NCBI GenBank assembly: GCA_964640665.1
Contig: CAZXHT010000021.1
Span: forward strand, 5,821 to 69,820
From: an uncultured Myxococcales bacterium
GTDB taxonomy: Bacteria > Myxococcota > B64-G9
Direction of reading: 5' to 3'
Length of the DNA stretch: 64,000 nt
How positions within the stretch are numbered: the first letter of the stretch is position 1; each line of letters begins with the position of its first letter. Shown in pieces: positions 1,784 to 23,119 of the stretch. The position numbers and the translations under genes were made by a program. The notes under the pieces were generated by a model that saw only the letters and a program-made list of their open reading frames with translations, had not been told where the DNA came from and searched no databases.

Positions 1784-2653
1784 ATGGGACGAATCTTGAC
1801 GCTAGTAGCGCTTCTGGCGGCTCCGGCGCCCTTCGTGCTCGACATAAGCGTTACTCCGCCCCGGCCACGGCAAGGGCAGCTGGTGTTGATCGAGGTGGCC
1901 GGGGTGTGCCCCGGAGATCGCGTCGAAGGTACATTCGACGAGCGCAAGTTGCGCTTCTACGTCGATCTTGCCGGTCGGGTCCGGACTTTGGCGGCAGTGC
2001 CTCTGAACCGCAAACCGGGAGAGGTCTCCCTGCTTGTCCGGGTTACCCATCCGGGCGAAGATCCCGTGATCCGCGGGCAGGCGGTGGGAATCGGAGCGGG
2101 AAAGTTTGAAAAACAAGAACTCAGGGTGGCCCCGCGCTTTGTAAAGCCGCCGCCCGAGGTCGCCGGCCGGATAGGCACAGAGCGCCGGGCCATGAAACGG
2201 CTGTGGAAGCAGGCGCCGACGCCGCGCAATTGGCGCGGCTCTTTCGTCTGGCCGCGCAAGGACAGGATCTGCTCGGCCTTCGGGTTGCGACGGGTTTTCA
2301 ACGGCAAGCTGCGCGGCCGGCACTGGGGGCTGGACATCGACGGCAAGGTCGGCCAGCCGGTGCGGGCCATCGGCGCGGGCAGGGTGGTCATGGTGGCCGA
2401 CAGGTACTATAGCGGCGGCACCGTGGTAATCGACCATGGTTTGAGGCTGTTTTCGCTCTACTTTCACCTGTCGGTTTTCGATGTCAAGAAAGGCCAGGTG
2501 GTTGAAAAGGGTCAACTCGTTGGCCAGGTGGGCAAGAGCGGCCGCGTGACCGGCCCGCATTTGCACCTGAGCACCAAGTTGGAAGGCGTCACTTTCGATC
2601 CCGTAACTCTCCTGGATGCCGACCTTTCCGAAAAGGGAGGACGGCAGCCTTGA
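1784..2653 (+). CDS. M23 family metallopeptidase
   Basis: Signal peptide; HxxxD (HWGLD), YxHL (LYFHLS) and HxH (GPHLHL) zinc motifs. Confidence 0.92.
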   Translation: MGRILTLVALLAAPAPFVLDISVTPPRPRQGQLVLIEVAGVCPGDRVEGTFDERKLRFYVDLAGRVRTLAAVPLNRKPGEVSLLVRVTHPGEDPVIRGQAVGIGAGKFEKQELRVAPRFVKPPPEVAGRIGTERRAMKRLWKQAPTPRNWRGSFVWPRKDRICSAFGLRRVFNGKLRGRHWGLDIDGKVGQPVRAIGAGRVVMVADRYYSGGTVVIDHGLRLFSLYFHLSVFDVKKGQVVEKGQLVGQVGKSGRVTGPHLHLSTKLEGVTFDPVTLLDADLSEKGGRQP

Positions 2654-5341: not shown

Positions 5342-6586
5342 CTAGTTTGTGCCCGAAGGTGGATCGACGATCTTGCCCATGAACAGCAGGGCCCCGGAGT
5401 GCCGGTCGTGGATCACGAACAGGAACGGCCGATCCACCCGGATCTCGGTCGGAGCGGCCGACAGGCTCACTTCCACCGAGGTGACCGCGGCGGCCTCGGT
5501 TCCTTCCTCGTTGACCTTGACGTAGGTCTTGTGCTTGACCTCGGAGATGTACAGATCGAGGGCCCCGTCGATCCCGGAAAAGTCGGCCTTGGCCGGGTCG
5601 AAGGCCGCTTCCATCCCCAGCGCTGTCAGTACGTTTACCAGCGAGTCCTCCCACTCGAGTTCGAACTTGGGCAGGTAGAGAAGCATCTCATTGTATTCCT
5701 CGAACCTGCCCATCCAGTTTGCCCAGTTCTCCGGGGTCAACTCGGCGACCAGATCGTCGATGTCCTTGTCCTCGCGCGGCAACAACACCGTCATTGAGAA
5801 CAGACCGTGCCCGTAGGCCAGATCCACCGCCTGGAAATCCTCGGTCTGCAGCACCGACAGATCGGCCTTCATGTTCATCATCTCGACCTGCTTATCCCCG
5901 TCGGGTGCGTGGAAGATCATGTCGCTGGTATCGGCCTTGTCGAACTGGAAGGTCCAGTCGCCCTTGAAGTAGATGGCGTTGATCAGGTACATCACCACCA
6001 GCGGGTCGATCGGCGACTCGACAATCTCCTCGATCTTGCCGTGGGTCTTCTCGTTGACCCAGGCGTTGATGGTGTCGGCTGCGCCCGAGTCGCCGAAGTC
6101 CAGGGCGGCGACTACCGCGGCGAAGAAGGTTACGTTGACATCGATGAACTCCTGCAATACCTCGAACCCCAGGCGGTACCAGATCGAGTTGGCGATCTCC
6201 AGGGTCACCGACGAGTCCATGCCGGTCAACAGGGTGATCAGGTCCAGGTAGCCCTGGTTGATTTGCCCGGTGGTCAAGTCGCCGAAGGCGAGGCACTCAC
6301 GCATGCCTTGTTCGGTGGTGCCGCGGGCGCCGTTGTACGTCATGCCCAGGGCCATGGACACGCTCAGGGGGGAGACGAACAGGTTTCCCCCGTCCGATTG
6401 AGCCGCCAGCTCCTGGAAAAATCCGAACCCGAACTGGTTGGAAGCCTCGACCAGGGATGTTTCCTGGGCGCTGAGTTCGCGGGGAGGCTGCCAGTTATCC
6501 CCGCACCCGCTGGTGGCCGTCCCCATCGCCAAGGATACCCCGATCACTCCAGCCAGAGTCAAAACGAATGCAACCGGTTTTCTCAT
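5342..6586 (-). CDS. Serpin family protease inhibitor, predicted lipoprotein
   Basis: NLFVSPLSVSMALGM, INAIYFKGDW, hinge EEGTEAAAVT, DRPFLFVI...LLFMGKI; start ATG 6586 with GAGGTG RBS; TSGC lipobox-like. Confidence 0.95.
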   Translation of the reverse strand: MRKPVAFVLTLAGVIGVSLAMGTATSGCGDNWQPPRELSAQETSLVEASNQFGFGFFQELAAQSDGGNLFVSPLSVSMALGMTYNGARGTTEQGMRECLAFGDLTTGQINQGYLDLITLLTGMDSSVTLEIANSIWYRLGFEVLQEFIDVNVTFFAAVVAALDFGDSGAADTINAWVNEKTHGKIEEIVESPIDPLVVMYLINAIYFKGDWTFQFDKADTSDMIFHAPDGDKQVEMMNMKADLSVLQTEDFQAVDLAYGHGLFSMTVLLPREDKDIDDLVAELTPENWANWMGRFEEYNEMLLYLPKFELEWEDSLVNVLTALGMEAAFDPAKADFSGIDGALDLYISEVKHKTYVKVNEEGTEAAAVTSVEVSLSAAPTEIRVDRPFLFVIHDRHSGALLFMGKIVDPPSGTN

Positions 6587-6789: not shown

Positions 6790-7710
6790 CTACTGCTTGA
6801 GCGGGCGGAACTGGGGCTTGCCGCCGAAGATGCGGCCGAAGATGCTGTAGCGGAAGAATCCGTCCTTGCCCTTGGCGCGGTTGAGCCCGTTGTCGAGAAA
6901 GCTCCTGAGTTCTTCGGGGATCTGCTTGCGGATCTCAGAAAGCTTCTCGTCGGATGGCTTGAAACGCAGGCGGCAGTGCGCCGAGATGTTCTCGGGCTTC
7001 TGCTGCAGCAGGAGGTAACCGTCGAGATTTGCCTCGATATCGTCCGAGCTTACCTTGCAGGCCTTGATGTTCGCCTTGCCCTTCTTGATCTCCAGGTTGG
7101 CCTGGGTCTTTCCCAGCCCGATCCAGGGCAGCGCGACTCCATATACTTTTCCCCGCCCTACCTTACCCTGCACAATATCCAGGCTGATGCTTCCGTGAGA
7201 AGCCTTGATGTCCTTGGGATCCACGTCCAACTTCACGTCGCCGGAAAGCTTGCCGGAAAGCTCCTGGCCGATGACGTCTTTCCAGAAGTTCAGCTTGCCC
7301 AGATCTAGCCCGGCGACTTTGGTCCGCAGGCTCCATTTGTCACCATCCAGGGTGAAGCCGCCGTCGATCCTGCCCTTGAGCATTTCCGAGGAAAAAGAAA
7401 CATCTTTCGTTCCGGTGATCAAACGCAACAACGAAATCCTGGCCGACAATTCATCCAGGCGTATTGCCAGCGGCAAGCTTCCCTGCTTGCCCTCCTTGAC
7501 CAGGCGGATCCCGGTGGCCTCGAAACCGTTGGGGAACAGGGTGCTCATTTCAGCGATGGTCATCTTCATGCCCAGTGTTCGTTCCGCCTGGCGGGTGACC
7601 ATGTCGCCGATGATGCGCACCGGAAAGCCGTGCACCAGGAAGAAAAGCAGGCAGCCGATGAAGAACAGCGGATAACAAACAATCTTTAGAATCTTTTTTC
7701 GCATGATCAC
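6790..7710 (-). CDS. gspN: Type II secretion system protein N
   Basis: N-terminal TM (YPLFFIGCLLFFLVHGFP), beta-rich AsmA-like body, last gene of the gsp operon. Confidence 0.8.
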   Translation of the reverse strand: MIMRKKILKIVCYPLFFIGCLLFFLVHGFPVRIIGDMVTRQAERTLGMKMTIAEMSTLFPNGFEATGIRLVKEGKQGSLPLAIRLDELSARISLLRLITGTKDVSFSSEMLKGRIDGGFTLDGDKWSLRTKVAGLDLGKLNFWKDVIGQELSGKLSGDVKLDVDPKDIKASHGSISLDIVQGKVGRGKVYGVALPWIGLGKTQANLEIKKGKANIKACKVSSDDIEANLDGYLLLQQKPENISAHCRLRFKPSDEKLSEIRKQIPEELRSFLDNGLNRAKGKDGFFRYSIFGRIFGGKPQFRPLKQ

Positions 7711-8327
7711 GAACCCGTTTTCTTGGTTGCGGCCTTGGCCGGCGTTTCTTCTTTCTTTACTTCCTTGAGCTGGAACTTGGATACGATGAAGGTCACGTCG
7801 AGCCGGCTGGGCTCCCTGAAGTTGTTCTTGATGTGCAACGTGCGCACCGCAATGCTCTCGGCCTTGCGCTCGAGTTGAACCAGGAAGTCGACCAGCCGGT
7901 CGATGGTGATGCGCGGAATCTTGACCTCGACCCGTTTCTCATCGACCTTCGTCTCGGCATTGGCGCCCGCGGAGCGCGGGTTCATCTCCATTTCGTTGGT
8001 GTCGATCCCCAGCCGCTGGGCCATGTTCTCCAGCGTGCCCATCAACTGGATGTTCCCGGCCTTGCGGATTCGTTTCTCGGACTCCTTGCGGGCCAGTTTG
8101 GCTTGCTCGAACTGTGCGCGCATGTCGATCATCTTGGTCAGTTTACCGGTCTTGTCCTCGATGCGTCGATCGAGCCCTCGCAGGCTCGAGGAGACCCACA
8201 GCGAGACCATCACTCCGACGAACAGGACGAAACAGACGGCCAGGCCGCCCACCATGAACTTCTCCCGGCGCGAGAGCCGCTCGAACGCCGCCAGCATTTC
8301 TTCGTATCTCTTGCCGAGCACGGCCAT
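7707..8327 (-). CDS. gspM: Type II secretion system protein M
   Basis: LSRREK + TM + coiled coil + ferredoxin-like tail (VEVKIPRITIDRLVDFL); ATG 8327 with GAGGT RBS. Confidence 0.8.
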   Translation of the reverse strand: MAVLGKRYEEMLAAFERLSRREKFMVGGLAVCFVLFVGVMVSLWVSSSLRGLDRRIEDKTGKLTKMIDMRAQFEQAKLARKESEKRIRKAGNIQLMGTLENMAQRLGIDTNEMEMNPRSAGANAETKVDEKRVEVKIPRITIDRLVDFLVQLERKAESIAVRTLHIKNNFREPSRLDVTFIVSKFQLKEVKKEETPAKAATKKTGS

Positions 8328-8344
8328 GACAACCTCGTAGCAGG

Positions 8345-9922
8345 TCAGCACCCGAAGGCGATGGTGAAACGGAATTCGACTTCCGATCCATCCGCCGTTT
8401 TCTGGGTCTTCCCTGTTTGAATTTTCTTGAAGCAGTTGTATTTTTCGAGAGCGGTTCTGATCTTTTCAACGGCTTCGAAGCTGTCGGTGAAGGCGGTCAG
8501 TTGGATGCGCTTGGGGCTGATGCTCATGTCCTTCATGCGCAGCTTCGTCTTTTCCGGGATACGCTTGTGCATCTCGCGCAGCACGTCCACGGCGCTCACT
8601 TGCGGGAGGGGATTTGTCTCCGGCGATATCTTTTCTTCCATGATCGACATGGCGACTTCGAGATCGTCGTAGGGCTTGCCCAGGATGGCCTGGGTGACCT
8701 CCTTCATGCGCGTGTTGAGAGCCTTTTCCGTGGATGAGAGGCTCAGGTAGCGTGTCGTTGCCAGCCCGATGGCGAGGAATATTGTGATCAATGTGGCTGC
8801 CACCAGGTGTACGACCTTTCCGCGCATGACCGCGAAATCGCCCTTGAAGGCAAAGGGTCCCTTGCGCAGATTGAGAAACCCGCGCCGGCCTCCCTGGTGG
8901 GCCTGCAGCGCCAGGCCCAGGGACTTGACCCAGCCGCTTGCACTGCCACTCTCATCCTGGAGGTGCTCCATGCCGGGCAGTTCGAAATGCTCGGCCCGGA
9001 TTACTTGTGCCTCAAGGCCCAGTTCCTCGGACAGGTAGCCGTCGAGATTCCTGATGGTAGCGCCGCCGCCGCAGAGCCAGATCCGGGAGACCCGACGCCG
9101 GGTCAGTGCCTGGTGGGCGGACAGGGTCTGGCGCAACTCGCGGATCAGGGTAGCCGTGGCGCGGCGCACGGCGTCCGAGATAAGTACCTGTTCGGGAGTC
9201 GCGGCGGTCTTGCCCGCGCCCTCGACGAAGGCGCCCTTCCGTTTGCCGTCCTCGGCTCTGGCGTGCTCGACCTTGAAAGCCTCGGCGAGTTGGGAAGTAA
9301 CCTCGTGACCGCCGCCGGACAGCGTCCGGGCGAATTCCACGCCGGCCGGGCCCATGATGCACAGGGACGACAGACGCTGGCCGATATCGAGCACTGCCAC
9401 CGAAGTATCGGGATCGTCGCTGCCTGGAAGCATGTCGAAAAGGCTGCTGTATGACAGGCTCTCGGGGCCGATCAGGCGCGGGTCGATGCCTGATTGTCCG
9501 AGGGTATCCAACCAGCCCGAAAGTAACTCGGTCTGGCACACCGCCACCAGCAGGCGCGATCCACCTTCTACTGCATCGCCGGCAACCAGGTACTCGAAGA
9601 CGACTTTGTCCAAGGGAAAGGGAATCAGGCTTTCCAACTCGAACCCGATGGTTTGGGCAATCCGCTTGCGGTCGGAAAACGGCAGGGTAAGAGGGCGGAT
9701 GGACACCTCGTTGCCGGGCAGGGCGGTTGCCAGCAGGTCTCCGTGGCCGCCGCTGTCGAGTTGGGAAAGCGCTTCGGCCAGGCGGGCTTGCCGAGGTCTG
9801 TCGTCCTGGGGCACGGGGACCACGCTGAAGTCGACCACCTCGACCGTGCGAAAGCTGCTGCGCAAACGCACTCTCTTTATCGATTCGTGTCCCAGATCCA
9901 GCCCGACCGTCATCTGCGCCAT
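8345..9922 (-). CDS. gspL: Type II secretion system protein L (PilM/PilN-like)
   Basis: VGLDLG actin-like start, LDIG, IWLCGGGA, LNLRKGPFAF + TM + PilN-like domain. Confidence 0.85.
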   Translation of the reverse strand: MAQMTVGLDLGHESIKRVRLRSSFRTVEVVDFSVVPVPQDDRPRQARLAEALSQLDSGGHGDLLATALPGNEVSIRPLTLPFSDRKRIAQTIGFELESLIPFPLDKVVFEYLVAGDAVEGGSRLLVAVCQTELLSGWLDTLGQSGIDPRLIGPESLSYSSLFDMLPGSDDPDTSVAVLDIGQRLSSLCIMGPAGVEFARTLSGGGHEVTSQLAEAFKVEHARAEDGKRKGAFVEGAGKTAATPEQVLISDAVRRATATLIRELRQTLSAHQALTRRRVSRIWLCGGGATIRNLDGYLSEELGLEAQVIRAEHFELPGMEHLQDESGSASGWVKSLGLALQAHQGGRRGFLNLRKGPFAFKGDFAVMRGKVVHLVAATLITIFLAIGLATTRYLSLSSTEKALNTRMKEVTQAILGKPYDDLEVAMSIMEEKISPETNPLPQVSAVDVLREMHKRIPEKTKLRMKDMSISPKRIQLTAFTDSFEAVEKIRTALEKYNCFKKIQTGKTQKTADGSEVEFRFTIAFGC

Positions 9923-9935
9923 TGCATTCTCCCGC

Positions 9936-11153
9936 TCACATCTCTCGCCAGTAAAGAATCTCTTGTCCCGAGGCCGTGTTCTTGAGCACCGTGCGGATCG
10001 TTACCGCCACCTCGCCTACTTGCCCGATCGCCTTGACCGAGAAGGTGTCGCTGAAAGGCGCTAAGTTTTTCAAGAAATAGGGGCTGAAGGTCGGCCCCAT
10101 GCTGTTGAAGAAGCCCTGGATGGCCTCTTTGTTGGGAACCATGAAAGTGGTCATCTGCATCAAGTTGCGAAACTCGAAAAACAGGGACAAAACCTCCAGG
10201 AGTTGCGGCAGACCTTGCTCTGTGCACAACGCCAGATTCTCGGGCTGCATGCAGAGCAACGAAAGCATCATCAGTGGATCGTTGACCGAAGTCAGGTTCA
10301 AAAGCAGAGCCGGGTCGGTACAGACCGTGAACTTGTCCCGGAACTCGTCCATGAAATCGTCGCCGATGCCCCTGATCATGTACAGTTCGTCGACGCTGAA
10401 GAAGGGGTCGTTCTTGTTCTCGTACGGATTTGCCAGCATGTCATAGAGCGAGTCTTCGTCGGAGGTGCCGGGCACGAACAGGACGGCTTGCGAGAAGGGA
10501 TTGACCACCAGCGCGTCGAGGTTGAAAGTGTCGATTGTCGTGTTGGCGTCGATCCAGTCGTGCATGGCCATGGCAATCTTGTCGGGAGAATTCAACTGGC
10601 CGTCGGCGTCTTCCTCTTCGAACATCACCTTGTAGCGGGGGTTGCCGATCAGCGCCAGGATCTGGGCCGTGATCGGGGCCGCGATGGAAGTAATGCTTTC
10701 GAGGGCGTTTATGTTGATCTTGCTGTACTCGTCGGTTATCTCCCCGTAGAAACTTCCGTCGAAATCTCCGAAGCCCCGCTTATCGCCCAGGTTGAGCCCC
10801 TCCAGCCCGAAGGCCGAGCCCAGTTCTCCGGATGTCAGGGCCTTGGCCAGGTCGCTCTCGATTGGGATGATCTGGTAAAGCTTGAGGACGCCGCCGGTGA
10901 AACGATCAACCTGTCCCTGGAAATGCAGCACCAGGCGGGAAAGGTTCACCGCCGAGCGGGCCAGGTAGTGTGCCTTGACCCGGTCCCTGACGTTGGCGGC
11001 GATCTGGACGTCGATCCTGGTTTGGTAGGCGAAGTCAACCACGATGGCCGATAAGATCGCCACTGTGACCAGCACCATCAGCAGGGCCATCCCGCGATTG
11101 TTTCCGGCGAGTCTGCGAACCTGCACGCTTCTTTTTCGATCGCTGATCTTCAT
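9936..11153 (-). CDS. gspK: Minor pseudopilin K
   Basis: RGMALLMVL prepilin site lacking E5, KININ, HhH-like DELYMIRGIG. Confidence 0.9.
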   Translation of the reverse strand: MKISDRKRSVQVRRLAGNNRGMALLMVLVTVAILSAIVVDFAYQTRIDVQIAANVRDRVKAHYLARSAVNLSRLVLHFQGQVDRFTGGVLKLYQIIPIESDLAKALTSGELGSAFGLEGLNLGDKRGFGDFDGSFYGEITDEYSKININALESITSIAAPITAQILALIGNPRYKVMFEEEDADGQLNSPDKIAMAMHDWIDANTTIDTFNLDALVVNPFSQAVLFVPGTSDEDSLYDMLANPYENKNDPFFSVDELYMIRGIGDDFMDEFRDKFTVCTDPALLLNLTSVNDPLMMLSLLCMQPENLALCTEQGLPQLLEVLSLFFEFRNLMQMTTFMVPNKEAIQGFFNSMGPTFSPYFLKNLAPFSDTFSVKAIGQVGEVAVTIRTVLKNTASGQEILYWREM

Positions 11154-11860
11154 TGTGAGCGCTTTATAAAATTGGCCAAGGGTTTCAAGGTGAAGATCCT
11201 GGTGATGACGGCAAAGGGCGTCTCCTTGTCATACTCGTCGACAACGATCAGGGTTATTCGCACCATGCGCGGCAAGCGGTTCAGCCGTTCGATCTGCGAG
11301 CAGTCCCACTCGTCGACCCAGTCATCCTTTGTCTCGTCCCACAACTCGATGCGCATCTCCTGGACGTCGGGGCAGAGCACCTGCGCCACTCCGCCCTCCT
11401 CCGGCTCGCCGTCGATACGCGCCTTCTCGCGGCGCATCAGGTTCATCTTCGACGAGTCGTCCGGATCGCTGGCGCCGAAATAGGTGATCACGTTCTGATC
11501 CGATTCGTGGGCGTCGCGGAACAGCCGCAGGTGCGAGAAGGAGGTGAACACCATGTGATCCAGCTTGCCTTCCTGCTCGACCTTGAAAAGCGTGCGCTGG
11601 CGGTGCTCACCCGTGGGAGTGTCCAACTCGCGACAGTCGTAGACGAAAGCCGACGAGATTTCCCGCGACATGCGCTCCAGCGCCACCCTGACCGTATGAT
11701 AGCGTTCTTGTGCCTGCATCACGAACTCGCGCGAATCGAAGGCGCGCGCAAAGCTTCCGGCGACGAGCGTCATTATCATGCCGGTGATCGTCAGCGCGAT
11801 CAGCAACTCGATTAAAGTGAAGCCGCAATTTCTATTCTTGGGCGTCACGCTCGACCTCAC
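11150..11860 (-). CDS. gspJ: Minor pseudopilin J
   Basis: GFTLIELLIAL prepilin motif, LNRLPRMVRITL tail, operon position. Confidence 0.88.
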   Translation of the reverse strand: MRSSVTPKNRNCGFTLIELLIALTITGMIMTLVAGSFARAFDSREFVMQAQERYHTVRVALERMSREISSAFVYDCRELDTPTGEHRQRTLFKVEQEGKLDHMVFTSFSHLRLFRDAHESDQNVITYFGASDPDDSSKMNLMRREKARIDGEPEEGGVAQVLCPDVQEMRIELWDETKDDWVDEWDCSQIERLNRLPRMVRITLIVVDEYDKETPFAVITRIFTLKPLANFIKRSQ

Positions 11861-12666
11861 TTGCCCATCGGCGAAAAACGGCCCGGGACGCCCTTGTTGA
11901 TGGACGTCTTCGCGCCGGGCGGCAGGTTGGTCGCGCCAGGCAGGCCCGAGCCCGCGGCCATGCCGGGCTGGGTCCCGGGCGTCATGCCGGGCTGCGCCCC
12001 CGCCCCCGACGGGGCCTGGGGCACCCTGACCAGGTGGGTGGACAGCACCAGCTGGTAGCCGGGGCCGCCTTCGCCCCAGGAGACCGTTAATTTCTCGAGA
12101 CGGATGGACTCCTCGAGCATGGTGGCCAAGGCGTCAACCTGTCCCCGCAACATCTCCGGGTTCAGCATGGATGCCAGGCCGCCCATTCCGCCCCCGCCCG
12201 CAGAGCCCTTGCCGAGCAGTCCCTGCTGCTCGAACATGCCCTTGAACTGGCCGAACTCGTCCGAGCCTTTGAGCTTGTCGAGGGCTGATGCGGATTTGGC
12301 TTCCTCGCCCTCGCCGCCCAGTCCTGACGAGGACAGCATGTGGTCGAAGGCCGCATCGAGCGGCAGCTCCACCTTGAGAACTTCCAGCTTGAACTGGAAA
12401 TGCGGATACCCCTGGTCGTCGAAGTCGCCCTCCTCGGTGTCGTCCATGTCAGGGAAGCCTTCCTTGGTGAGTTTCTCCTCGGCTTCTTCCATCTTGGCCT
12501 GGGCCAGGAAGGTGGCCACGGTGAGTTGCTTGCCGTAAGTGCTGAGATTAATGGCGCCGCTCTGCACCTGCAGCAGGGCCACGTATGAAGTAGCCAGGAT
12601 ACCCAGGGCGACCATAACCTCGAGCAACGTCGAGCCCCGCCGGGCGGCTGTCAGCCGACCGATCAT
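11857..12666 (-). CDS. gspI: Minor pseudopilin I with Gly/Met-rich insert
   Basis: RGSTLLEVMVALGIL prepilin motif, operon position. Confidence 0.82.
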   Translation of the reverse strand: MIGRLTAARRGSTLLEVMVALGILATSYVALLQVQSGAINLSTYGKQLTVATFLAQAKMEEAEEKLTKEGFPDMDDTEEGDFDDQGYPHFQFKLEVLKVELPLDAAFDHMLSSSGLGGEGEEAKSASALDKLKGSDEFGQFKGMFEQQGLLGKGSAGGGGMGGLASMLNPEMLRGQVDALATMLEESIRLEKLTVSWGEGGPGYQLVLSTHLVRVPQAPSGAGAQPGMTPGTQPGMAAGSGLPGATNLPPGAKTSINKGVPGRFSPMGK

Positions 12667-13313
12667 TCCTCGGGGCCCTCCACGTACTGGGGGTAGATCT
12701 TGACGCTGCCGAGCAGCGCCTCGACCGACAGGGTGTAGATGTCCCGGTCGTCGTCAACCAGGTGGATAACCGCGCGCTCAGTCATGCCGGTCGGAAAACA
12801 GTACAGGTAAGCCCGTCCGGTCGTGACCCTGTCGTCCTGGTGCGCCACCCAGACGTCATCGATGGAAATACCGTCTGGCAGGCCGGCCTTCTTGGTTATC
12901 GGCCCAGCGAAGTCGGCAAATGAAGCGCGGGACTTCGGCTTCCACATATCGCCGCTCTCTATGAATGAGCGGCCCATGAAGCGCCGGGCGCGATCATTTT
13001 CTTCGGGAGGCTGCAACTCACCGTCGCTCACCCGGGTCTTCTCGCGCTCGAGCAGGAACTTGTCGCTGGAGCTTTCGACCCAGTAGCTGTTCTCGTCCAG
13101 GTCGAAAACCACACGGAAGGGAGAGTTTTTCCTGGCCGCCAGATCGTAGGTGTAACGAATGGCGCCCGCCAGCCTGGAGGCCGAGGTCTTGAGGTTCATG
13201 CCGGTGATGTTGCTGACCGAGGGGATCACCATGGAGATGATCATCACCATCAGCGAGATGGTGATTACCAGCTCGATCAGCGTGAAACCGTGATTTCGGG
13301 GTCTGCCTGCCAT
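12663..13313 (-). CDS. gspH: Minor pseudopilin H
   Basis: GFTLIELVITI prepilin motif, CFPTG motif, operon position. Confidence 0.82.
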   Translation of the reverse strand: MAGRPRNHGFTLIELVITISLMVMIISMVIPSVSNITGMNLKTSASRLAGAIRYTYDLAARKNSPFRVVFDLDENSYWVESSSDKFLLEREKTRVSDGELQPPEENDRARRFMGRSFIESGDMWKPKSRASFADFAGPITKKAGLPDGISIDDVWVAHQDDRVTTGRAYLYCFPTGMTERAVIHLVDDDRDIYTLSVEALLGSVKIYPQYVEGPEE

Positions 13314-13340: not shown

Positions 13341-13748
13341 TTACTGTTCGAGGGAAAGGTCTTTGTCGAAACCCTCCCCACCCGAGGCGCCGTCGGCCCC
13401 GAAGGACTTGATGGTGTACGAGCGGGCGTTATGGCGCACGTACTGGAACTCGTTGCCCCACATGTCCTTTGGGAGACTTTTCATCACACCCTGGGTGACC
13501 AGGATCTGTAGCCCCTCCTCGGTGGATGGATAGGACACCGACCTGATCTTGTAGGCGTCCAGGGCTTCCTCGACGTTGTGCATCTGGATCTTGGTCGCGT
13601 CGACCTTGGACTGCTCCTGCTGCCTGACGAAGAAGACCGTGATCAGGGTTGCCATCATGCCCATGATGGCGATGACGACCATGATCTCGATCAAAGTCAT
13701 GCCCCGCACATCCCGGGCAACCATCCGTAGCTGCTTGTTCTTTTTCAT
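13341..13748 (-). CDS. gspG: Major pseudopilin G
   Basis: GMTLIEIMVVIAI, YPSTEEGL, LPKDMWGNEFQY, SFGADG..GGEG.DKD. Confidence 0.93.
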   Translation of the reverse strand: MKKNKQLRMVARDVRGMTLIEIMVVIAIMGMMATLITVFFVRQQEQSKVDATKIQMHNVEEALDAYKIRSVSYPSTEEGLQILVTQGVMKSLPKDMWGNEFQYVRHNARSYTIKSFGADGASGGEGFDKDLSLEQ

Positions 13749-13785
13749 TCCGTATCCTCCGGCTCTCTTTTATATTATCAACTGT

Positions 13786-14334
13786 TTAGGCTTCTTCTTC
13801 ACGCGGCCGTTTCCGCCAGCTTCGGTAGAGATAGCCGACCAGGATCAAGGAACCCGCCGTGATCGATATGTCCGCCAGGTTGAACGTCGGCCAGTGGGCC
13901 CGGCCCGCCCAGGAGACGTCGATGAAATCCATTACCTCGCCCCGCACAACACGATCGGCCAGGTTGGAGATCGCGCCCCCGAGAATCAACCCTAACGATA
14001 TCGAGGTGGTCCTGGACCAGCCGAGTGTGCGCACGGCGAAGGTGACTATTGCAAAAATGGCCAACACGCCCAGGGCCAGCAACACCGGCAGACGCAAATT
14101 GTCCGGGAGGTTGGCGAAGAGCCCGAAGGCCCCATGTGGGTTGGACCGAAGCTGCAACTCGAAAAACCCCGGAACCAGTTGCAGCGGGCGGCCGGGTGCC
14201 AGGAGCGAGCCTGCGATCCACTTGCTGATCTGGTCCAGCATACCGGCGGTCAGCCCGATCGTCAGCACGACGACGGCGTGATAGACGCGGTACCCGGCTT
14301 TATTCCGGCCGGGGGTTTGTGGATCGCGGTTCAT
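13786..14334 (-). CDS. lspA: Lipoprotein signal peptidase II
   Basis: DQISK, N..GAFGL, SNLADR, VMDFI and FNLAD (both catalytic Asp present), four TM segments. Confidence 0.9.
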   Translation of the reverse strand: MNRDPQTPGRNKAGYRVYHAVVVLTIGLTAGMLDQISKWIAGSLLAPGRPLQLVPGFFELQLRSNPHGAFGLFANLPDNLRLPVLLALGVLAIFAIVTFAVRTLGWSRTTSISLGLILGGAISNLADRVVRGEVMDFIDVSWAGRAHWPTFNLADISITAGSLILVGYLYRSWRKRPREEEA

Positions 14335-14338
14335 TGTG

Positions 14339-15556
14339 TCACCTTACGAACTCGTTGAGCTGCATGATAGGCAGCAGGATCGACAAGACCATGAAGGCGA
14401 CTGCGCCGCCCATGAAGACGATCATCAGCGGCTCAAGCAGCGTGGTCAAGGCGTTGATGCGGTTCTCGGCCTGATCCTGGTAGCTTTCGGCAACGTTGTT
14501 CAACATTTCTTCGAGCTGGCCCGAACGCTCTCCCACGGCGATCATGTGGATCACCAGGGGGGGGAATTCTCCGCTGCGCCTGAGCGGGGCGGCGATGCTC
14601 TCGCCCTCCTTGATGCTGTCGCGGGCGTCGTCGATGGCCCGGGCCAGGATCTTGTTGTTGACAATCGAGCGCACGATCGAAAGAGCCGTCAATAGCGGCA
14701 CGCCGCTTACCAGCAGCGTCGATAAGGTCTTTGCGAAGCGCGAGATGGCCAGCATGCGAATGATCTTACCGGCGATAGGCATATCCAGCATGAAGCGATC
14801 CCAGCGCAGGCGCCCCCGTTCGGTCTTGATGTACTGGATCAGGCCGATGATGCCCAGCACCAGCAACACTAAAATGAGCCACCAGTAATCCCTGACGAAG
14901 TTGGCCATGGTAAGGAGCACCTTGGTCGGCAAGGGCAGGGCTGCCTTGCGGTCGGCGAAGATCTTGGTGATCTTTGGTATAACCACGACCATCAGGATGG
15001 TTAAAATGCCCATCCCGATCATTACCATGATTGCCGGGTAGGTCATCGTGCCGATCACCTTGGAGCGCAGCTTCGCTTGGCCCTCGGTGAAATCCGCCAG
15101 ACGGTTGAGGACGACATCGAGGGCGCCCGACGACTCGCCGGCGCGGATCATGTTGCAATACAGTTCGGGGAAGACCTTGGGATGGTGACCCATGGCGTCC
15201 GCCAGCGAACTGCCCTCGTTCACCCGCTGCTTGACCTGTGCTGTGACCATCTTTAAAGTCTGGTTCTCGGCTTGATCGATGACAGCGCTGAGGCTCTCGA
15301 CCAATGTCACGCCGGCCTTGAGCAGGGTTGCCAGTTGGCGCGTGATCACGGACAGCTCGCGTGTCGATACTCGCGCCGTCAGTTTTTTCAGATCGATCTC
15401 GCCGCGCTTGGTGCGTTCTTGCTGCTGCTGGATCTCCGTCGGAAAGACGCCGTCCTTGCGCAGCAGAGATTGCAGGGTGCGGATGCCGTCCGCGTTGCGA
15501 ATACCGCTTACGGCCTTGCCTGAACTGGATACACCCTTGTAGTGGTAGACGGCCAT
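14339..15556 (-). CDS. gspF: T2SS inner-membrane platform protein F
   Basis: TRQLATLLKAGVTL, GESSGALD, GERSGQLE, LLEPLMI. Confidence 0.95.
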   Translation of the reverse strand: MAVYHYKGVSSSGKAVSGIRNADGIRTLQSLLRKDGVFPTEIQQQQERTKRGEIDLKKLTARVSTRELSVITRQLATLLKAGVTLVESLSAVIDQAENQTLKMVTAQVKQRVNEGSSLADAMGHHPKVFPELYCNMIRAGESSGALDVVLNRLADFTEGQAKLRSKVIGTMTYPAIMVMIGMGILTILMVVVIPKITKIFADRKAALPLPTKVLLTMANFVRDYWWLILVLLVLGIIGLIQYIKTERGRLRWDRFMLDMPIAGKIIRMLAISRFAKTLSTLLVSGVPLLTALSIVRSIVNNKILARAIDDARDSIKEGESIAAPLRRSGEFPPLVIHMIAVGERSGQLEEMLNNVAESYQDQAENRINALTTLLEPLMIVFMGGAVAFMVLSILLPIMQLNEFVR

Positions 15557-15562
15557 GATAGC

Positions 15563-17278
15563 TTAGAACGTGTCCTCCTGGGTTACCCTGAGAACTTCCT
15601 CGATCGTTGTGATGCCCCGCGCTATCTTGTCGGCTCCGTCCTCGCGCAGGGTAAGCATGCCCTTGGACATGGCTGCGTGTTTGATCGTACCGGAGTCCGT
15701 GTTCTTGAGCACCAGCCCGCGGATGTCGTCATCGACCACCAGAAGCTCGTAAATTCCCAAACGGCCGAGGTATCCGGTCTTGAAGCACTTGGAGCAGCCG
15801 ACGGCCTTGTAGATCGACTCGGGCATCTGGACTCCGTCGTCACGCAGCCCCAGCTTGTTCCATTCGTCCCTGGTAGGTTTAACTTGCTTGCGACAGTGCG
15901 GGCACATGGTGCGCACCAGGCGTTGGGCCAGGATGGCCACCAGGGATGACGCCGCCAGGAACGGTTCGACACCCATGTCGACCAGGCGCGTGACGGCTCC
16001 GGCGGAGTCGTTGGTGTGCACGGTCGAGAAGACCAGGTGACCGGTCAGCGATGCCTGGATGGCGATCTCGGCAGTCGGCAGGTCGCGTATCTCGCCCACC
16101 ATGATCACGTCGGGATCCTGGCGCAGGAATGATCGCAGGACGTTGGAAAAGGAAAGATCGATCTTCTCGTTGACGTGGATCTGGGCGATGCCCGGCAACT
16201 GGTACTCGACGGGATCCTCGACGGTCAGGATGTTGATCTCGGGCGTGTTGATCTTGGTCAAGGCCGCGTAGAGTGTCGTCGTCTTGCCGCTGCCGGTCGG
16301 GCCGGTGACCAGGACGATGCCGTGGCTGAGGTGAATGAGCTGGTTCATCTTGCGCAGGTTGCCCTCGTTCATCCCCAGCTCGTTCAAATCGAGCAACACG
16401 GCCGTCTTGTCCAGCAGGCGCATGACCACGCGCTCACCCTGCACGGTGGGAACCGTGCTCAGGCGGATGTCGATGTCGCGCCCGGCCAACTTGATGCGGA
16501 TGCGGCCGTCCTGTGGCAGGCGCTTCTCGGCGATGTTGAGCCCGCCCATGATCTTCACCCGCGAGGTGATGCTCGACTGAAAACGCTTCGGCGTGCGCAG
16601 GATCTCGTAGAGGATACCGTCGCGGCGGAAGCGCACCGAGATGTCTCTTTCCATCGGCTCGATGTGGATGTCGGAGCAGCGCTCCTTGACGGCCTGGAAG
16701 AGCAGCGAGTTCACCAGCCGGATGATGGGCGCCTCGTCCGAGGCATCCAGCAAATCTTCAGGTTCTTCCAGTTCCTGTGCCAGCGAGTCGAGATCGGTTT
16801 CTTCGAGGTCGTCCACCAGCGCCTCGGCCTCGCCGGCCGCTCGGTCGTAGAGGCGGTTGATGCCGTTGAGAATGGTCTGACCGACGGCCAGCACCGGCCT
16901 GATGGGCTGGCCGAGCAACACCCTGACATCGTCCAGGGCGAAGGTGTTCAGCGGATCGGCCACGGCGACGATGACTTCCTCGCCATTCTGTCCCAGGGGC
17001 AGGACGAGTTGCTGCTTGGCGAAGTTGATCGGTATGCGGCGCACAAGTTCGGGGTCGACCCCGTCGATGTCGATGTCGTCGACCACCGGCAGGTCGAGTT
17101 GGGTCGCCAGTGCCTGAACCACGTCCTCCGCCGAAGCGGCCTTGATCGAGACCAGGATCTCTCCGATCCTGCCTCCACGCTCGGCCTGCGCGGCAAGCGC
17201 CTGTTCGAGTTTCTCCTCGTCGAAGCCCGTCTGTTCGAGAAGGATCTGACCGAGCTTTCTGGTGTCACCCATTGTCAC
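15563..17278 (-). CDS. gspE: T2SS ATPase E with N-terminal MshEN-like segment
   Basis: SDIHIEP, Walker A GPTGSGKTT, LRQDPDVIMVGEIRD, TGHLV, CxxC...CxxC. Confidence 0.95.
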   Translation of the reverse strand: MTMGDTRKLGQILLEQTGFDEEKLEQALAAQAERGGRIGEILVSIKAASAEDVVQALATQLDLPVVDDIDIDGVDPELVRRIPINFAKQQLVLPLGQNGEEVIVAVADPLNTFALDDVRVLLGQPIRPVLAVGQTILNGINRLYDRAAGEAEALVDDLEETDLDSLAQELEEPEDLLDASDEAPIIRLVNSLLFQAVKERCSDIHIEPMERDISVRFRRDGILYEILRTPKRFQSSITSRVKIMGGLNIAEKRLPQDGRIRIKLAGRDIDIRLSTVPTVQGERVVMRLLDKTAVLLDLNELGMNEGNLRKMNQLIHLSHGIVLVTGPTGSGKTTTLYAALTKINTPEINILTVEDPVEYQLPGIAQIHVNEKIDLSFSNVLRSFLRQDPDVIMVGEIRDLPTAEIAIQASLTGHLVFSTVHTNDSAGAVTRLVDMGVEPFLAASSLVAILAQRLVRTMCPHCRKQVKPTRDEWNKLGLRDDGVQMPESIYKAVGCSKCFKTGYLGRLGIYELLVVDDDIRGLVLKNTDSGTIKHAAMSKGMLTLREDGADKIARGITTIEEVLRVTQEDTF

Positions 17279-17289
17279 AGGCTCCCGTG

Positions 17290-20115
17290 CTACTCCACTT
17301 CCAAGCGGCTATCATGCTCGGCGGGTTGTTCAGTCGCCCCGGGCGCTTCCGGGGGTTGCTCGAGCGGTGGTGGCTCGGCCTCTTTGGTTGTCGGGATGGC
17401 CGCTGCGTCAACATCTTCGTCGGGGCCTTTAGCGGCAGCCGCTTGAGGGGTCACGACGATTTCCTTGCCCGTTCCTTTACCGCCGTTTTCGATCTTGGAG
17501 AGCTCTTTGGTAAGAGTAAGGTGGATGTCGGCCAGCGGGCCGTGCCGCTTGCGAAAGTCGATGAAGGATTTGTACTCGGGCCCCTCTCCGTAGAAGCGCT
17601 CGATGAACTCCTTGCGCTCTGCCATCTTGCGCTCGAAGATGGCCCTGAAATCTTCGGGGCCTTCGATTACGTGTGGCGTCAAGAACAGAAGCAGGTTGGT
17701 TTTCGTTTTTTGCTTCTTGCGCGTTCGGAAAAGCCAACCTATCACCGGAATGTCGCCGAGCACCGGAATCTTGGTCTCGCCCACGTCGACCTTTTCGCGG
17801 ATCAGGCCGCCGATAACGACGGTCTGCTCGTTCTGGACCTCGACCACCGTCTTGGCCGAGCGCTTGGTGGTGGTCGGGCCGAGAGGGTTGGAGGTGTCCT
17901 TGACCTCGCTTAGTTCTTCTTCCAGCTCCAGCCTGATCATGTTGCCCTCGTTGATCTGCGGCTTGATCTTCAGTGTCAGGCCGACCTCCTGGCGGTTGAT
18001 GGATCCCATGCCCATGCCGCCCAGCATTCCCCCCAGGCCGCCGAGACCGCCCATGCCTTGGTTGATACCCGAGGTGGCAGAGCTCGTTCCCGCCAGCGAG
18101 GCCAGTCCGGCCAGAGAGCTCATTCCCCCGCCGTAGCCCCCGTAACCGCCGGGCATGGGGATGTTCTCACCGACCTTGATTTCGGCCTCCTCGTTGTCCG
18201 AGGTCAGGATGTGCGGCGTGCTGAGCACGTTGACGTTGGAGTCGGTCTGCAGTGCCTGGAGCATGACGCCGAAGGAAGGCAGCGCGATGCCGGCTAAAAT
18301 GCTGTCCTCGCCCGCCAGCTCGGGGCCGCGGATACCCCCCAAAAATCCAAGCAGGCTGAGGTTGGGCGCCAGCGAGTTGAAGTTGGATCCCTGAGACTTG
18401 AACTGGCTGCCGAAGAACAGCGGCACGGTCTCGCCCGCGATCTGTGCGGCGGCTCCGGTGTGGAAGGTGAGGCCGGTCTCCTTGGAAGTGTCCAGGTTGA
18501 CTTCCATGATGACCGCCTCGACGAATACCTGGCGCCGGGGGATGTCCAACTTCTTGATCACCTTCAGCATGCTCTTGAAATCGTTGGGGTTGGCGACGAT
18601 GACCAGCGAGTTGGTAGCCTTGTCGGAGGTCACTTTGACCTCGCCCTGAAACAGTTCGGCTGCCTTCGGCGCCCCCCCTGTCTTTCCCCTGCTCTTGCCG
18701 CGCTTCGATGTCGTCATGCTGTGCCGGCCGGGAGTTCCCGAGGCCAGCGAAGTCAGCGTGGAGGCCAACTCCTCGGAGTCGGCGTGCTCCAGGTAGATCA
18801 CCTGGATCTGGCCCTCGCCGGGGATGGGAACGTCGATCTGCTTGATCAGGTCTTCGATCTTGGAAAAGGCACGGACCGGCGCCACCAGGATCAGCTTATT
18901 GGTTCGCTCGTCGGCGATGACTTTTGAGAGGGTAACGCCGCTATCGTCCCCGGATTCCGCCCGTCCCGGGGGCACCGTGCTCTTGCTTCGTCCGGGGCGC
19001 ACCGGCTGGATGCGATGGCTCTTGGTACGGCCGCTGGAGGATCCTCCCTTCTGGCCGAAGATTTCCTCCAGGGTCTGGGATAGCTCGGTGGCCTCGGCGT
19101 ATTCCACCTGGATCACGCGGATCTCTTCCTGGCCCAGGGGCGTATCGAGCTGCTTGAGTATCTCCAACAGGCGGTGCATGTTGTTGCCGGTGTCGGAGAT
19201 GATCAGCGTGTTGGTCGGGGCGTAGGGGTAGCTGTCGCCGTCCTTGCTGGTTAGCTGCTTGACCGTGCCGTTGACCGTGTTGGCGTCTACGTACTCGAGC
19301 TGTACGACCCGGGTGACCATCAGGTCGAGAGCCGGGATATCGACCTTCTCGCCGATGAAGGTGGGGATGGTATCCTTGGTGGCGTCCCTCTTCATCTGAA
19401 TTTTAAGGAAGTTACCGACCTTGACGACCGTCATGTTGTTGACGTTGAGCGCGGACAAGAACGCCCTGTAGGCCTCGTCGGCCGTGACCGGCGTGTTGGA
19501 TAAAATTGTGATCTTGCCGCCGCGGATGCTGTCACCGATAATGAAGTTCTTGCAGGTCTGCTTGCTGATCCACTGGACGATTTCGAGCACTTCGGCTTCG
19601 TTGAAGTTCATCATCACCCGCATGCGGGGGGGCAGCGGGCGGCACCTCTTCTCTTTGGTTGATACCTTTGATTTGGCGCCCGCGCTCTTGTCGGAACCTT
19701 CAGCGGAGCCTTTGTCGGCGCCGGTCTGTGTCGATTCGGCGCCGCGCAGGTGGCGGGTCGGGGAGCCGGGCCCGGTAGCGCGAGGCGGCGTTGACAATTT
19801 GCCCGGAGGCGTCGGGCGGCGCAGCTTCCCGGCCGGCTGGATACCCCGGCGCAGTCCCGGCTTGATCGGCTTGATGCGCGATGATGCAGGCGTTGGGCGA
19901 AACGCCGGCGTGCGCTTCAGCTTCTTGAGGCCCTTCATCTTGGTGGTCACAGGGCTCTCTGGCTCGCTTTTCTCCTGCGCGAGCAGCAGCGCCCGGTCAT
20001 TTCCGCGGGCGCCGCCTTCGCCGTCGTTGCCGTGGTCAGCGCGGGCTGGGTTTGGCGCGGCCGTGAGCAGACCAAGAACGGCGATGGTTACAGAAATACG
20101 GTGCACGATGGTCAT
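17290..20115 (-). CDS. gspD: T2SS secretin D
   Basis: Low-complexity leader, N0 (MNFNEAE), N1-N3 repeats, RRQVFVEAVIME, NVLSTPHILT, KIPVLGDIPVIGWLFR. Confidence 0.95.
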   Translation of the reverse strand: MTIVHRISVTIAVLGLLTAAPNPARADHGNDGEGGARGNDRALLLAQEKSEPESPVTTKMKGLKKLKRTPAFRPTPASSRIKPIKPGLRRGIQPAGKLRRPTPPGKLSTPPRATGPGSPTRHLRGAESTQTGADKGSAEGSDKSAGAKSKVSTKEKRCRPLPPRMRVMMNFNEAEVLEIVQWISKQTCKNFIIGDSIRGGKITILSNTPVTADEAYRAFLSALNVNNMTVVKVGNFLKIQMKRDATKDTIPTFIGEKVDIPALDLMVTRVVQLEYVDANTVNGTVKQLTSKDGDSYPYAPTNTLIISDTGNNMHRLLEILKQLDTPLGQEEIRVIQVEYAEATELSQTLEEIFGQKGGSSSGRTKSHRIQPVRPGRSKSTVPPGRAESGDDSGVTLSKVIADERTNKLILVAPVRAFSKIEDLIKQIDVPIPGEGQIQVIYLEHADSEELASTLTSLASGTPGRHSMTTSKRGKSRGKTGGAPKAAELFQGEVKVTSDKATNSLVIVANPNDFKSMLKVIKKLDIPRRQVFVEAVIMEVNLDTSKETGLTFHTGAAAQIAGETVPLFFGSQFKSQGSNFNSLAPNLSLLGFLGGIRGPELAGEDSILAGIALPSFGVMLQALQTDSNVNVLSTPHILTSDNEEAEIKVGENIPMPGGYGGYGGGMSSLAGLASLAGTSSATSGINQGMGGLGGLGGMLGGMGMGSINRQEVGLTLKIKPQINEGNMIRLELEEELSEVKDTSNPLGPTTTKRSAKTVVEVQNEQTVVIGGLIREKVDVGETKIPVLGDIPVIGWLFRTRKKQKTKTNLLLFLTPHVIEGPEDFRAIFERKMAERKEFIERFYGEGPEYKSFIDFRKRHGPLADIHLTLTKELSKIENGGKGTGKEIVVTPQAAAAKGPDEDVDAAAIPTTKEAEPPPLEQPPEAPGATEQPAEHDSRLEVE

Positions 20116-20129
20116 GGCTGGATACCTTT

Positions 20130-21059
20130 CTACTCTATCGTGTAGCTGAGCTTCTTGGACTTGCCGCGACGGGTGACTTCGATGTCGACGGACCTGGCGC
20201 TCTTGAGCTTCTGGTAGATCTCGAGCGCCTTGTCCGGGCTGTTGATCGCATAGCCGTTGATCTTGTGAATAATGTCGCCGTTCTGGATGCCGAGCTTGCT
20301 GTAGACGGAGCCCGGCCTGATGGCGAACAACTTGAAGCCGTTGGCCTCGCCGTTCTTGAAAGACGGGACGATGCGGGCCTGCATGGCGATGTTGTTGAGG
20401 TTCGATAAAGTCTTGTCGATCTCGCTGCGGTCGATGGTCCAGGAGTCCTTACCGCTTTTCTTGATGCCCTTGCCGAGAGCGGATGCCTTACGACTGTGGG
20501 GCCTTGTGGCCTTGTGCCCGGGTCTCTTGGGACCGGCCTTCTCCTGGAGTTCGAGGTACTCGTTCACGCCGTTGCGATTGATGACCACCTTGCGCGAGAG
20601 AATGGCCACCAGCCGGGCCTCGTCCATCAGGTCGTCACGGATGCGATAGACGTCTGTCTCAGACGAGGTCAAGTCGGTGATCATGGCCATGGACCACTTG
20701 GGGTTATCGGGGGCGACCACGGTTCCGACCAGCGCGGCCCTGAGATCGCTGGGCTGGCCTTCGCCGGCCAACAGATCCCTTGCGGCATCTTCCGATAACT
20801 CAGGCCCGGAGTTCTCGGGGACGGGTTCGGCCATGGTCGAGTTGAAGTAGTTACGCTCGATAATGACCTGGTTGTCGTCGGAAATCTTATTTTGGCGGTT
20901 GGCGAGCCGCTTGTTCTTGGAGCCATGTACCGCGAACGACGGCAAAGCACGCAACTTGTGGGCGACGACCACGTTGATGGTTCCGGCCAGCAGCCATGCG
21001 CCCAGGGCTAGAAACAGCAGGTTGACAGTCCAGAAATATTTCTTCATGAATGTTTCCAT
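20130..21059 (-). CDS. gspC: T2SS protein C with PDZ domain
   Basis: N-terminal TM, HR domain (LVGTVV...SMAMI), PDZ (GFKLFAIRPGSVYSKLGIQNGD). Confidence 0.92.
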   Translation of the reverse strand: METFMKKYFWTVNLLFLALGAWLLAGTINVVVAHKLRALPSFAVHGSKNKRLANRQNKISDDNQVIIERNYFNSTMAEPVPENSGPELSEDAARDLLAGEGQPSDLRAALVGTVVAPDNPKWSMAMITDLTSSETDVYRIRDDLMDEARLVAILSRKVVINRNGVNEYLELQEKAGPKRPGHKATRPHSRKASALGKGIKKSGKDSWTIDRSEIDKTLSNLNNIAMQARIVPSFKNGEANGFKLFAIRPGSVYSKLGIQNGDIIHKINGYAINSPDKALEIYQKLKSARSVDIEVTRRGKSKKLSYTIE

Positions 21060-22015: not shown

Positions 22016-23119
22016 ATGTCAATAAGACTTGGTGACTTGTTGCTGAAAAACAAGTTGATCAACGAGCACCAACTCAAGGAGGGCTTGCATGCTCAGACTA
22101 TTTTCGGCGGTAAGCTCGGTACCAATCTGGTCGAGCTAGGATACGTCAACGAGCATGATCTGGCCAAGCTGCTGAGTGCCCAGCTTGGCATGCCCTGCAT
22201 CGAGGCCGGCGATCTCGACAACATCGACAGGGAGGTTTTGAATCTCGTGCCCGTCAAGCTGGTGCAGAAGCACACGGTTCTCCCGCTCGAGGTCGAGGGA
22301 CGCACGCTGCGCCTGGCCATGTCTGATCCCACCAACTTTCCCAGCGTCGACGAGATCTGCTTTGCGACCGGGCTGACGGTCGATCCGCGAGTGGCTCCCG
22401 AGATACTGCTCGTATACGCTATCGAGAAATATTACGACGTGCCGCGAAATGTTCGTTTCGTTCGCATGGCAGGCCTGAGCCAGAACCTTGCCGAGACAGC
22501 CACTGCATCGGCCTCGGCGGTGCCGAAGCTTGATGGCGCCTCCGCCGAGCTTCTTGCTGCGGAGGAAAAAGAGTTAGGATCTGCGACCTCGAACGAAGAA
22601 ATGGCCGTGGATGGTTTTCCGATCCACCAGGTCGTGACACAGTTGGCGAGAGCGGGACAGGTTTCGGACATACTCGATGTGATTCGAGCCTTTGTATCCG
22701 AAGACTTCAAATACGCGGCCGCGTTTCTGTTCAACGGAGAGATCGCGGTCGGCGGGACGCATGTCGGCGGCAAGCTTGCGATCGACGAGTTTCAGGAGTT
22801 GTCCTTTCCGGTAAACAGCAGCCAGTTGCTTTTCAATGTTTGGAACTCCAAGGAAACTTTCCATGGCCAGCCGAGTATATCGGGCGTGGACCACTGGTAC
22901 TTTTCGGAGCTCGGGTTTCCGGAAGACAGGCCCATCCTCTGCATTCCCGTGATTACCAACGGCAAGGTCAGCTGCATGATACTGGCTTGCGAGAACAAGA
23001 AAGGCGAGCTGCTGGACATGCTGGACATCTACTCTGTGCTGGTCAAGAAACTCAGCTACGCTTTTGAGCTTCTGGTGCTGAAGAACCAGATTCTCGATCT
23101 CTCGGAAATTGACACCTGA
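22016..23119 (+). CDS. Stand-alone MshEN/T2SSE_N domain protein with GAF-like C-terminal domain (no ATPase)
   Basis: RLGDLLLKNKLINEHQLKEGLHAQ...KLGTNLVELGYV tandem MshEN motifs, LPL...LAMSDP; no Walker A; tail LCIPVITNGKVSCMILA. Confidence 0.8.
   Translation: MSIRLGDLLLKNKLINEHQLKEGLHAQTIFGGKLGTNLVELGYVNEHDLAKLLSAQLGMPCIEAGDLDNIDREVLNLVPVKLVQKHTVLPLEVEGRTLRLAMSDPTNFPSVDEICFATGLTVDPRVAPEILLVYAIEKYYDVPRNVRFVRMAGLSQNLAETATASASAVPKLDGASAELLAAEEKELGSATSNEEMAVDGFPIHQVVTQLARAGQVSDILDVIRAFVSEDFKYAAAFLFNGEIAVGGTHVGGKLAIDEFQELSFPVNSSQLLFNVWNSKETFHGQPSISGVDHWYFSELGFPEDRPILCIPVITNGKVSCMILACENKKGELLDMLDIYSVLVKKLSYAFELLVLKNQILDLSEIDT

Follow-up and report, generated by a model that had tools for sequence, protein, structure and literature searches.

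A type II secretion system (T2SS, Gsp) can handle lipidated cargo, as seen in the surface display of PulA by Klebsiella and of MYXO-CTERM proteins such as TraA by Myxococcus. PulA is cleaved by the general lipoprotein signal peptidase (signal peptidase II, LspA; MEROPS A8) and the MYXO-CTERM proteins by the myxosortase MrtX, and no peptidase gene lies within those gsp operons; the MYXO-CTERM cleavage, C-terminal to the Cys and in inverted topology, is one that LspA would not be expected to perform. How T2SS-exported surface lipoproteins are chosen instead of entering Lol sorting is poorly understood. Here we describe lspA2, a gene for a second, divergent LspA that lies between gspF and gspG in the T2SS operon of an uncultured Myxococcales bacterium. 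The stretch of DNA analysed, called the window, comprises 64,000 nucleotides of contig CAZXHT010000021.1 (positions 5,821 to 69,820, forward strand). A full-text literature search found no published description of a signal peptidase gene, or of lspA, inside a gsp operon.

The housekeeping LspA, represented by the structures from Pseudomonas aeruginosa (PDB ID 5DIR) and Staphylococcus aureus (PDB IDs 6RYO and 6RYP), shares with LspA2 the fold, the Asp-Asp dyad and 13 of 14 conserved residues, whereas LspA2 differs from it in being encoded in a T2SS operon and not in an ileS-lspA(-lgt) context, in the replacement of the hinge Gly by His, Asn or Asp, and in a long stem outside the Myxococcota housekeeping clade. 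Extra paralogues beside a housekeeping copy have been described for Myxococcus xanthus, which belongs to the same phylum, with the myxovirescin (TA) cluster containing lspA3 and lspA4, and for globF in the globomycin cluster (PMC9943842). In contrast to lspA2, with its place between gspF and gspG and its substituted hinge, these genes are part of antibiotic clusters, and GlobF carries all 14 residues. The gspO/pilD genes (MEROPS A24) resemble lspA2 in that a membrane aspartyl peptidase gene adjoins a platform gene in a type IV filament operon, but they belong to an unrelated family, the substrate of which is the prepilin leader at the cytoplasmic face.

By its sequence, LspA2 is a bona fide LspA with an intact active site. 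It matches the Peptidase_A8 family (Pfam ID PF01252) with 109.4 bits (cut-off 25) and the lspA equivalog model TIGR00077 with 90.6 bits (cut-off 73.95), and its AlphaFold2 model, with a predicted local distance difference test (pLDDT) score of 82.3, folds into four transmembrane helices and the periplasmic beta-cradle. LspA structures are the only significant Foldseek matches of the model among solved structures, with target-normalised template modelling (TM) scores of 0.80-0.86 for 5DIR (E value 2e-11) and 0.76-0.79 for 6RYO/6RYP. Positive charges at both termini of the sequence fit the usual orientation, in which both termini are cytoplasmic. The P. aeruginosa residue numbering was cross-checked with the HMMER alignment to 5dir_A. 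Residues were compared in an alignment of 45 members of the lspA2 clade with 110 other LspAs. Both catalytic Asp residues (D136 and D155) are kept, as the earlier note on this DNA had read, and 13 of the 14 residues listed as highly conserved in LspA (PMC6952399) are invariant in the 45 clade members.

The remaining residue is the hinge Gly, which occupies the second position of the extracytoplasmic loop (Olatunji et al. 2020, PMC6952399) and was reported to be strictly conserved among 485 LspAs (PMC9943842). The flexibility of this loop has been linked to the binding of globomycin and myxovirescin and suggested to reflect substrate promiscuity, and a Gly54Pro mutant (S. aureus numbering) is inactive (PMC6952399). 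In our alignment, the Gly is found in 109 of the 110 other LspAs (99%) and in none of the aligned clade members, which have His (89%) or, in the remaining aligned members, Asn or Asp. A pattern search of the clade proteins from the database search likewise finds His, Asn or Asp at the hinge in 32 of 33; on the remaining one, P0029, the pattern was anchored wrongly, and its aligned motif reads N-K-N-G-A-F-G. The motif NPHGAFG of LspA2 was aligned by HMMER without gaps to 'NTGAAFS' of 5dir, and further clade-specific positions, L62 and R63, lie in the strand of the beta-cradle leading into it. The earlier note had singled out two variant motifs; the first, NPHGAFG, is a genuine clade-specific change, whereas SNLADR falls within ordinary variation, its Asp (D127) being a conserved but not a catalytic residue. 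Since the hinge Gly is conserved but not family-defining, and the curated models accept LspA2, we file it as a divergent member of LspA.

The genome of the window, 95% complete in 218 contigs, contains two Peptidase_A8 genes, so lspA2 is not its sole lspA. The other encodes the housekeeping LspA1 on contig C57 (L003 5664-10978), in the usual housekeeping order ileS-lspA-lgt-lgt with two tandem Lgt genes; the earlier note had rightly expected the housekeeping gene to lie elsewhere and near ileS. As described below, lspA2 falls into a separate clade.

Rather than being a quirk of this one assembly, the arrangement recurs in related genomes. The GTDB family of the window's genome comprises 18 species genomes from 13 genera, and lspA2 is present in 13 of them, lying between gspF and gspG in the genome itself and in all 12 relatives that carry it. 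Two deep-branching metagenomic contigs, with the members P0029 and P0028, show the order gspD-E-F-lspA-G or F-lspA-G, which brings the contexts flanked by gsp genes to 15 of 15. Among 401 sampled Myxococcota genomes (154 genera), no member of the lspA2 clade turned up beyond the family; the two next-best matches in this sample lie outside the clade at 36-40% identity, and gsp genes are absent from the neighbourhood of five second lspA copies in other Myxococcota families. Three genomes of the family (G007, G010 and G012) lack lspA2 and have gspG directly after gspF in otherwise intact operons. Their gspF-gspG spacers of about 40-100 nt (L026 3257-3359 in G007, L028 in G010, L027 in G012) contain no lspA2 remnants, indicating that the losses, or the original insertion, were precise. 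The remaining two genomes enter neither count: in G008 the contig breaks inside gspF and in G004 the operon is not assembled. This distribution comes from the search of the sampled genomes; a generic LspA pattern scan of the contigs was swamped and picked up just 3 members of the clade.

A maximum-likelihood tree of 66 LspAs unites the T2SS-embedded copies in a single monophyletic clade (support 100/100). Its long stem measures 2.26 substitutions per site, and it falls outside the clade of housekeeping LspAs from Myxococcota (98/80). The sister group, weakly supported (72/79), consists of housekeeping LspAs of other phyla, which are themselves found in ileS-lspA-lgt, so lspA2 could derive from an old transfer or from a duplicate that diverged fast. 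The topology of the clade mirrors that of the concatenated GspF-G-H-J-K tree, pointing to vertical inheritance with the operon. On the Gsp tree the genomes without lspA2 are scattered, with G012 sister to G013, G007 sister to the group of G005 and the window's genome (G000), and G010 on a separate deep branch, and presence and absence require a minimum of three changes. The simplest history compatible with the trees would place lspA2 in the family ancestor, with vertical descent alongside the operon and no fewer than two independent clean losses thereafter. Pairwise ratios of nonsynonymous to synonymous substitution rates (dN/dS) of 0.10-0.28 across at least 10 genera, similar to those of the minor pseudopilins, indicate purifying selection. 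At the same time, lspA2 diverges faster than its neighbours, with 45-90% identity compared with 67-99% for GspF and GspE.

The spacing of the genes is tight as well as conserved. The start of lspA2 follows the gspF stop by 3-14 nt, mostly 4 nt, in 13 of 13 genomes, and in 6 of these the lspA2 stop and the gspG ATG overlap; in the window, 37 nt separate the lspA2 TAA from the gspG ATG, and gspG has its own GGAGGA. No terminator-like site is found on the coding strand between gspF, lspA2 and gspG, and the sole promoter-like match in this region is at chance level. The conserved spacing and the lack of a terminator-like site fit co-transcription of lspA2 with gspF and gspG.

The operon itself is a classical T2SS (Gsp) operon, with GspC, D, E, F and G above the cut-offs of the NCBIfam equivalog models (Table 1). 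Its order on the minus strand, C-D-E-F-[lspA]-G-H-I-J-K-L-M-N, is the same in the relatives. The earlier note had given the canonical order from C to N, with lspA 4 nt past the gspF stop, and this order holds: in the downstream genes, N_methyl, T2SSJ, T2SSK_1st, PilM_2/PilN and T2SSM exceed the Pfam cut-offs, supporting J, K and M, while the L position matches T2SSL with 23.2 bits, just under the cut-off of 25.5, and H, I and N are named mainly from position, having only a prepilin motif or no model match.

Table 1. Features of the window discussed in the text, with positions counted from its first letter.
Feature	Position	Strand	Description
lspA2	13786..14334	-	182 aa; second, divergent lipoprotein signal peptidase (signal peptidase II, MEROPS A8)
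Asp136 codon	13927..13929	-	catalytic; Asp124 in P. aeruginosa, Asp118 in S. aureus; invariant in 45/45 clade members and 110/110 other LspAs
Asp155 codon	13870..13872	-	catalytic, within FNLAD; Asp143 in P. aeruginosa, Asp136 in S. aureus; invariant in 45/45 and 110/110
N65-P-H67-G68-A-F-G codons	14122..14142	-	start of extracytoplasmic loop; His in place of hinge Gly (Gly56 in P. aeruginosa, Gly54 in S. aureus), Gly one position later
gspF-lspA2 junction	14335..14345	-	read from sequence: AAGGTG Shine-Dalgarno overlapping the gspF TGA, 4-nt gap (CACA), lspA2 ATG
gspF	14339..15556	-	inner-membrane platform protein, 405 aa; TIGR02120 493 bits (cut-off 424)
gspG	13341..13748	-	major pseudopilin, 135 aa; TIGR01710 104 bits (cut-off 88.85); PF08334 and PF07963 also match
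gspE	15563..17278	-	ATPase; TIGR02533 731 bits
gspD	17290..20115	-	secretin, 941 aa, type I (non-lipoprotein) signal peptide; TIGR02517 568 bits
gspC	20130..21059	-	deltaproteobacterial type; NF041515 GspC_delta 312 bits (cut-off 150)
gspH, I, J, K, L (PilM/PilN-type), M and N-like gene	6790..13313	-	assigned from Pfam models and position
GspL-position protein	8345..9922	-	525 aa; PilM_2 plus PilN-type, weak T2SSL match
T2SSE_N/MshEN-like protein	22016..23119	+	stand-alone, divergent, upstream of gspC
801-aa lipoprotein	2650..5055	+	lipobox LIA↓C
serpin	5342..6586		lipobox protein
A24 prepilin peptidase (CpaA/TadV-type)	about 54136..54465	+	in the Tad cluster of the window

Some components of the machinery have features of their own. 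The protein at the GspL position combines PilM_2 with a PilN-type region, so the inner-membrane platform recalls a type IV pilus PilM-PilN fusion. At its N-terminus, GspE has an MshEN-type motif for binding cyclic di-GMP (c-di-GMP) (NF053729, 42.7 bits, cut-off 38), and a stand-alone MshEN-like protein is encoded upstream of gspC (Table 1). GspD has an N-terminal low-complexity extension of about 170 residues rich in Pro, Lys and Arg, a Gly-rich insertion and an acidic Pro-rich C-terminal tail, all outside the match to the GspD model (residues 169-827).

In one metagenome-assembled genome (G006; L009 313-1236, protein P0020), lspA2 has no stop and continues in frame through the gspG ribosome binding site and ATG, giving an LspA2-GspG fusion open reading frame of 314 aa, which the NCBI annotation treats as a single protein. 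Such a fusion would have a compatible topology, since the C-terminus of LspA is cytoplasmic and so is the prepilin leader; alternatively, the fusion could be an assembly error.

The position of the gene suggests, without proving, that lipoprotein maturation is tied to the T2SS. Because of this position and the altered substrate-entry loop, our preferred reading, to which we give a tentative probability of about 0.4, is that LspA2 is an active, specialised signal peptidase II co-expressed with the T2SS and maturing a subset of lipoproteins. LspA2 would be made with the T2SS from one transcript, probably by coupled translation after gspF and before gspG, and would act on a T2SS-linked subset of diacylglyceryl-modified prolipoproteins, cleaving their signal peptides, while LspA1 would serve the bulk lipoproteome. 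The clients may be lipoprotein cargo moved by the T2SS to the cell surface, for which the report that the Myxococcota T2SS brings lipid-anchored proteins to the surface (PMC11980579) counts as a precedent, or accessory lipoproteins encoded elsewhere. The remodelled hinge, with Gly changed to His and a Gly shifted by one, and the L62 and R63 changes in the beta-cradle may narrow or shift substrate recognition. As judged from the sequences, LspA2 is predicted to be enzymatically active, to have an altered specificity and to be linked to T2SS clients, and it may be the dedicated enzyme coupling lipoprotein processing to T2SS export that the earlier note proposed. A stronger version, in which LspA2 is a physically integrated accessory of the T2SS platform that cleaves cargo at the machine and hands the mature lipoprotein directly to the pseudopilus to be displayed at the surface, bypassing Lol, seems to us quite improbable. 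If it were true, this family's T2SS would largely serve to display lipoproteins at the surface, equipped with a signal peptidase of its own, and the in-frame read-through in G006 would be a snapshot of the proximity of LspA2 and GspG.

The search for clients weighs against a specialised peptidase. No conserved lipobox is found in any Gsp protein of the operon. The candidates within the operon were set aside individually: the 'FFIGC' motif near the N-terminus of GspN has its Cys within a transmembrane helix, with Gly in its place in G005 and Ala in G012, and the residue at -1 is V or L in most genomes; the signal peptide of GspD is of type I and its relatives' N-termini have no lipobox; and GspC and GspM are anchored by transmembrane segments. 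The earlier note had counted three lipoprotein cargo candidates in the window, and three lipobox proteins are indeed encoded there, but none is syntenic beyond the genus and none tracks lspA2. The serpin has orthologues in G007 and G010, which lack lspA2, and is encoded on other contigs in relatives. The 801-aa lipoprotein is absent from G003, G014 and G017, which carry lspA2, and present in G012, which lacks it, and the EGF-repeat lipoprotein occurs in only 9 of the 18 genomes with no pattern relative to lspA2. Lgt copy number does not reveal a parallel pathway either, as every genome of the family has 3-5 Lgt genes (Pfam ID PF01790) with or without lspA2. Thus, no client was found among the Gsp proteins or the window's lipoproteins. 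The clean losses of lspA2 from intact operons in three genomes (at least two independent losses) argue in the same direction, indicating that the T2SS works without the gene, and a gene inserted within an operon would be passed on along with it, functionally coupled or not. A crude lipobox census, made in the window's genome only, gave 1008 noisy candidates and no obvious second lipobox class. The 801-aa lipoprotein gene adjoins the gsp operon only in three genomes of the window's own genus and is elsewhere in the family located on other contigs or absent.

The losses and the lack of a client or co-varying gene are what would be expected if lspA2 were redundant, a passenger or capacity booster: an ordinary LspA paralogue, inserted a single time between gspF and gspG in the ancestor of the family and inherited with the operon, which would at most raise general signal peptidase II capacity during T2SS expression and have no specific clients. 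Its faster evolution relative to GspE and GspF also fits. We consider this doubtful but a serious alternative, because the gene has been under purifying selection in at least 10 genera, all 45 sequences keep the active site unchanged and share a fixed signature at the substrate-entry side, and the tight coupling to both neighbours is conserved; the long stem moreover suggests a functional shift over simple redundancy. The repeated losses also fit a conditionally useful gene, such as an inhibitor-insensitive spare copy that keeps lipoprotein maturation going when LspA1 is blocked by competitors' myxovirescin or globomycin, its position in the gsp operon being accidental. The sole changed residue among the highly conserved ones is the hinge Gly of the loop that clamps both antibiotics onto the enzyme (PMC6952399), Myxococcota are the source of myxovirescin, and an extra lspA is thought to confer resistance in producers, namely LspA3 and LspA4 in M. 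xanthus and GlobF in Streptomyces (PMC9943842). However, the known resistance-type copies lie inside a biosynthetic cluster, whereas lspA2 is flanked by gsp genes in all 15 contexts examined; GlobF keeps all 14 conserved residues, so the hinge change is not the known route to resistance; and expression tied to a secretion operon would be odd for a resistance gene. We therefore regard a spare copy as unlikely.

LspA2 might also act on the machine itself, processing a pseudopilin, GspN or the secretin or serving as a non-catalytic platform subunit, in a slot where pilus operons often carry the prepilin peptidase. It directly follows a platform gene and precedes the major pseudopilin gene, the operon has no gspO, and in G006 lspA2 runs in frame into gspG with a compatible topology. 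Against this, the pseudopilins lack a lipobox Cys and carry ordinary prepilin sites (G↓F/M), the GspG leader reading ...RDVRG↓MTLIE, and the genome encodes two A24 peptidases, a PilD-type prepilin peptidase on contig C9 and a CpaA/TadV-type enzyme in the Tad cluster of the window. The pseudopilins thus have a processing enzyme of their own and LspA2 is not needed for them. The Cys near the N-terminus of GspN is not conserved and is part of a transmembrane helix, GspD carries signal peptides of type I, the invariance of the catalytic residues speaks against a role that is purely structural, and intact operons without lspA2 exist, making a role in the machine very improbable.

The significance of lspA2 is limited by the uncultured state of the organisms and by the lack of a client protein among the candidates. 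Its retention in the T2SS operon across at least 10 genera nevertheless offers a genetic handle on how lipoproteins are selected by the T2SS. The fixed hinge change, located in the loop that binds both known natural LspA inhibitors, makes the clade a natural experiment on substrate and inhibitor recognition by LspA, and LspA2 is thereby relevant to LspA as an antibiotic target.

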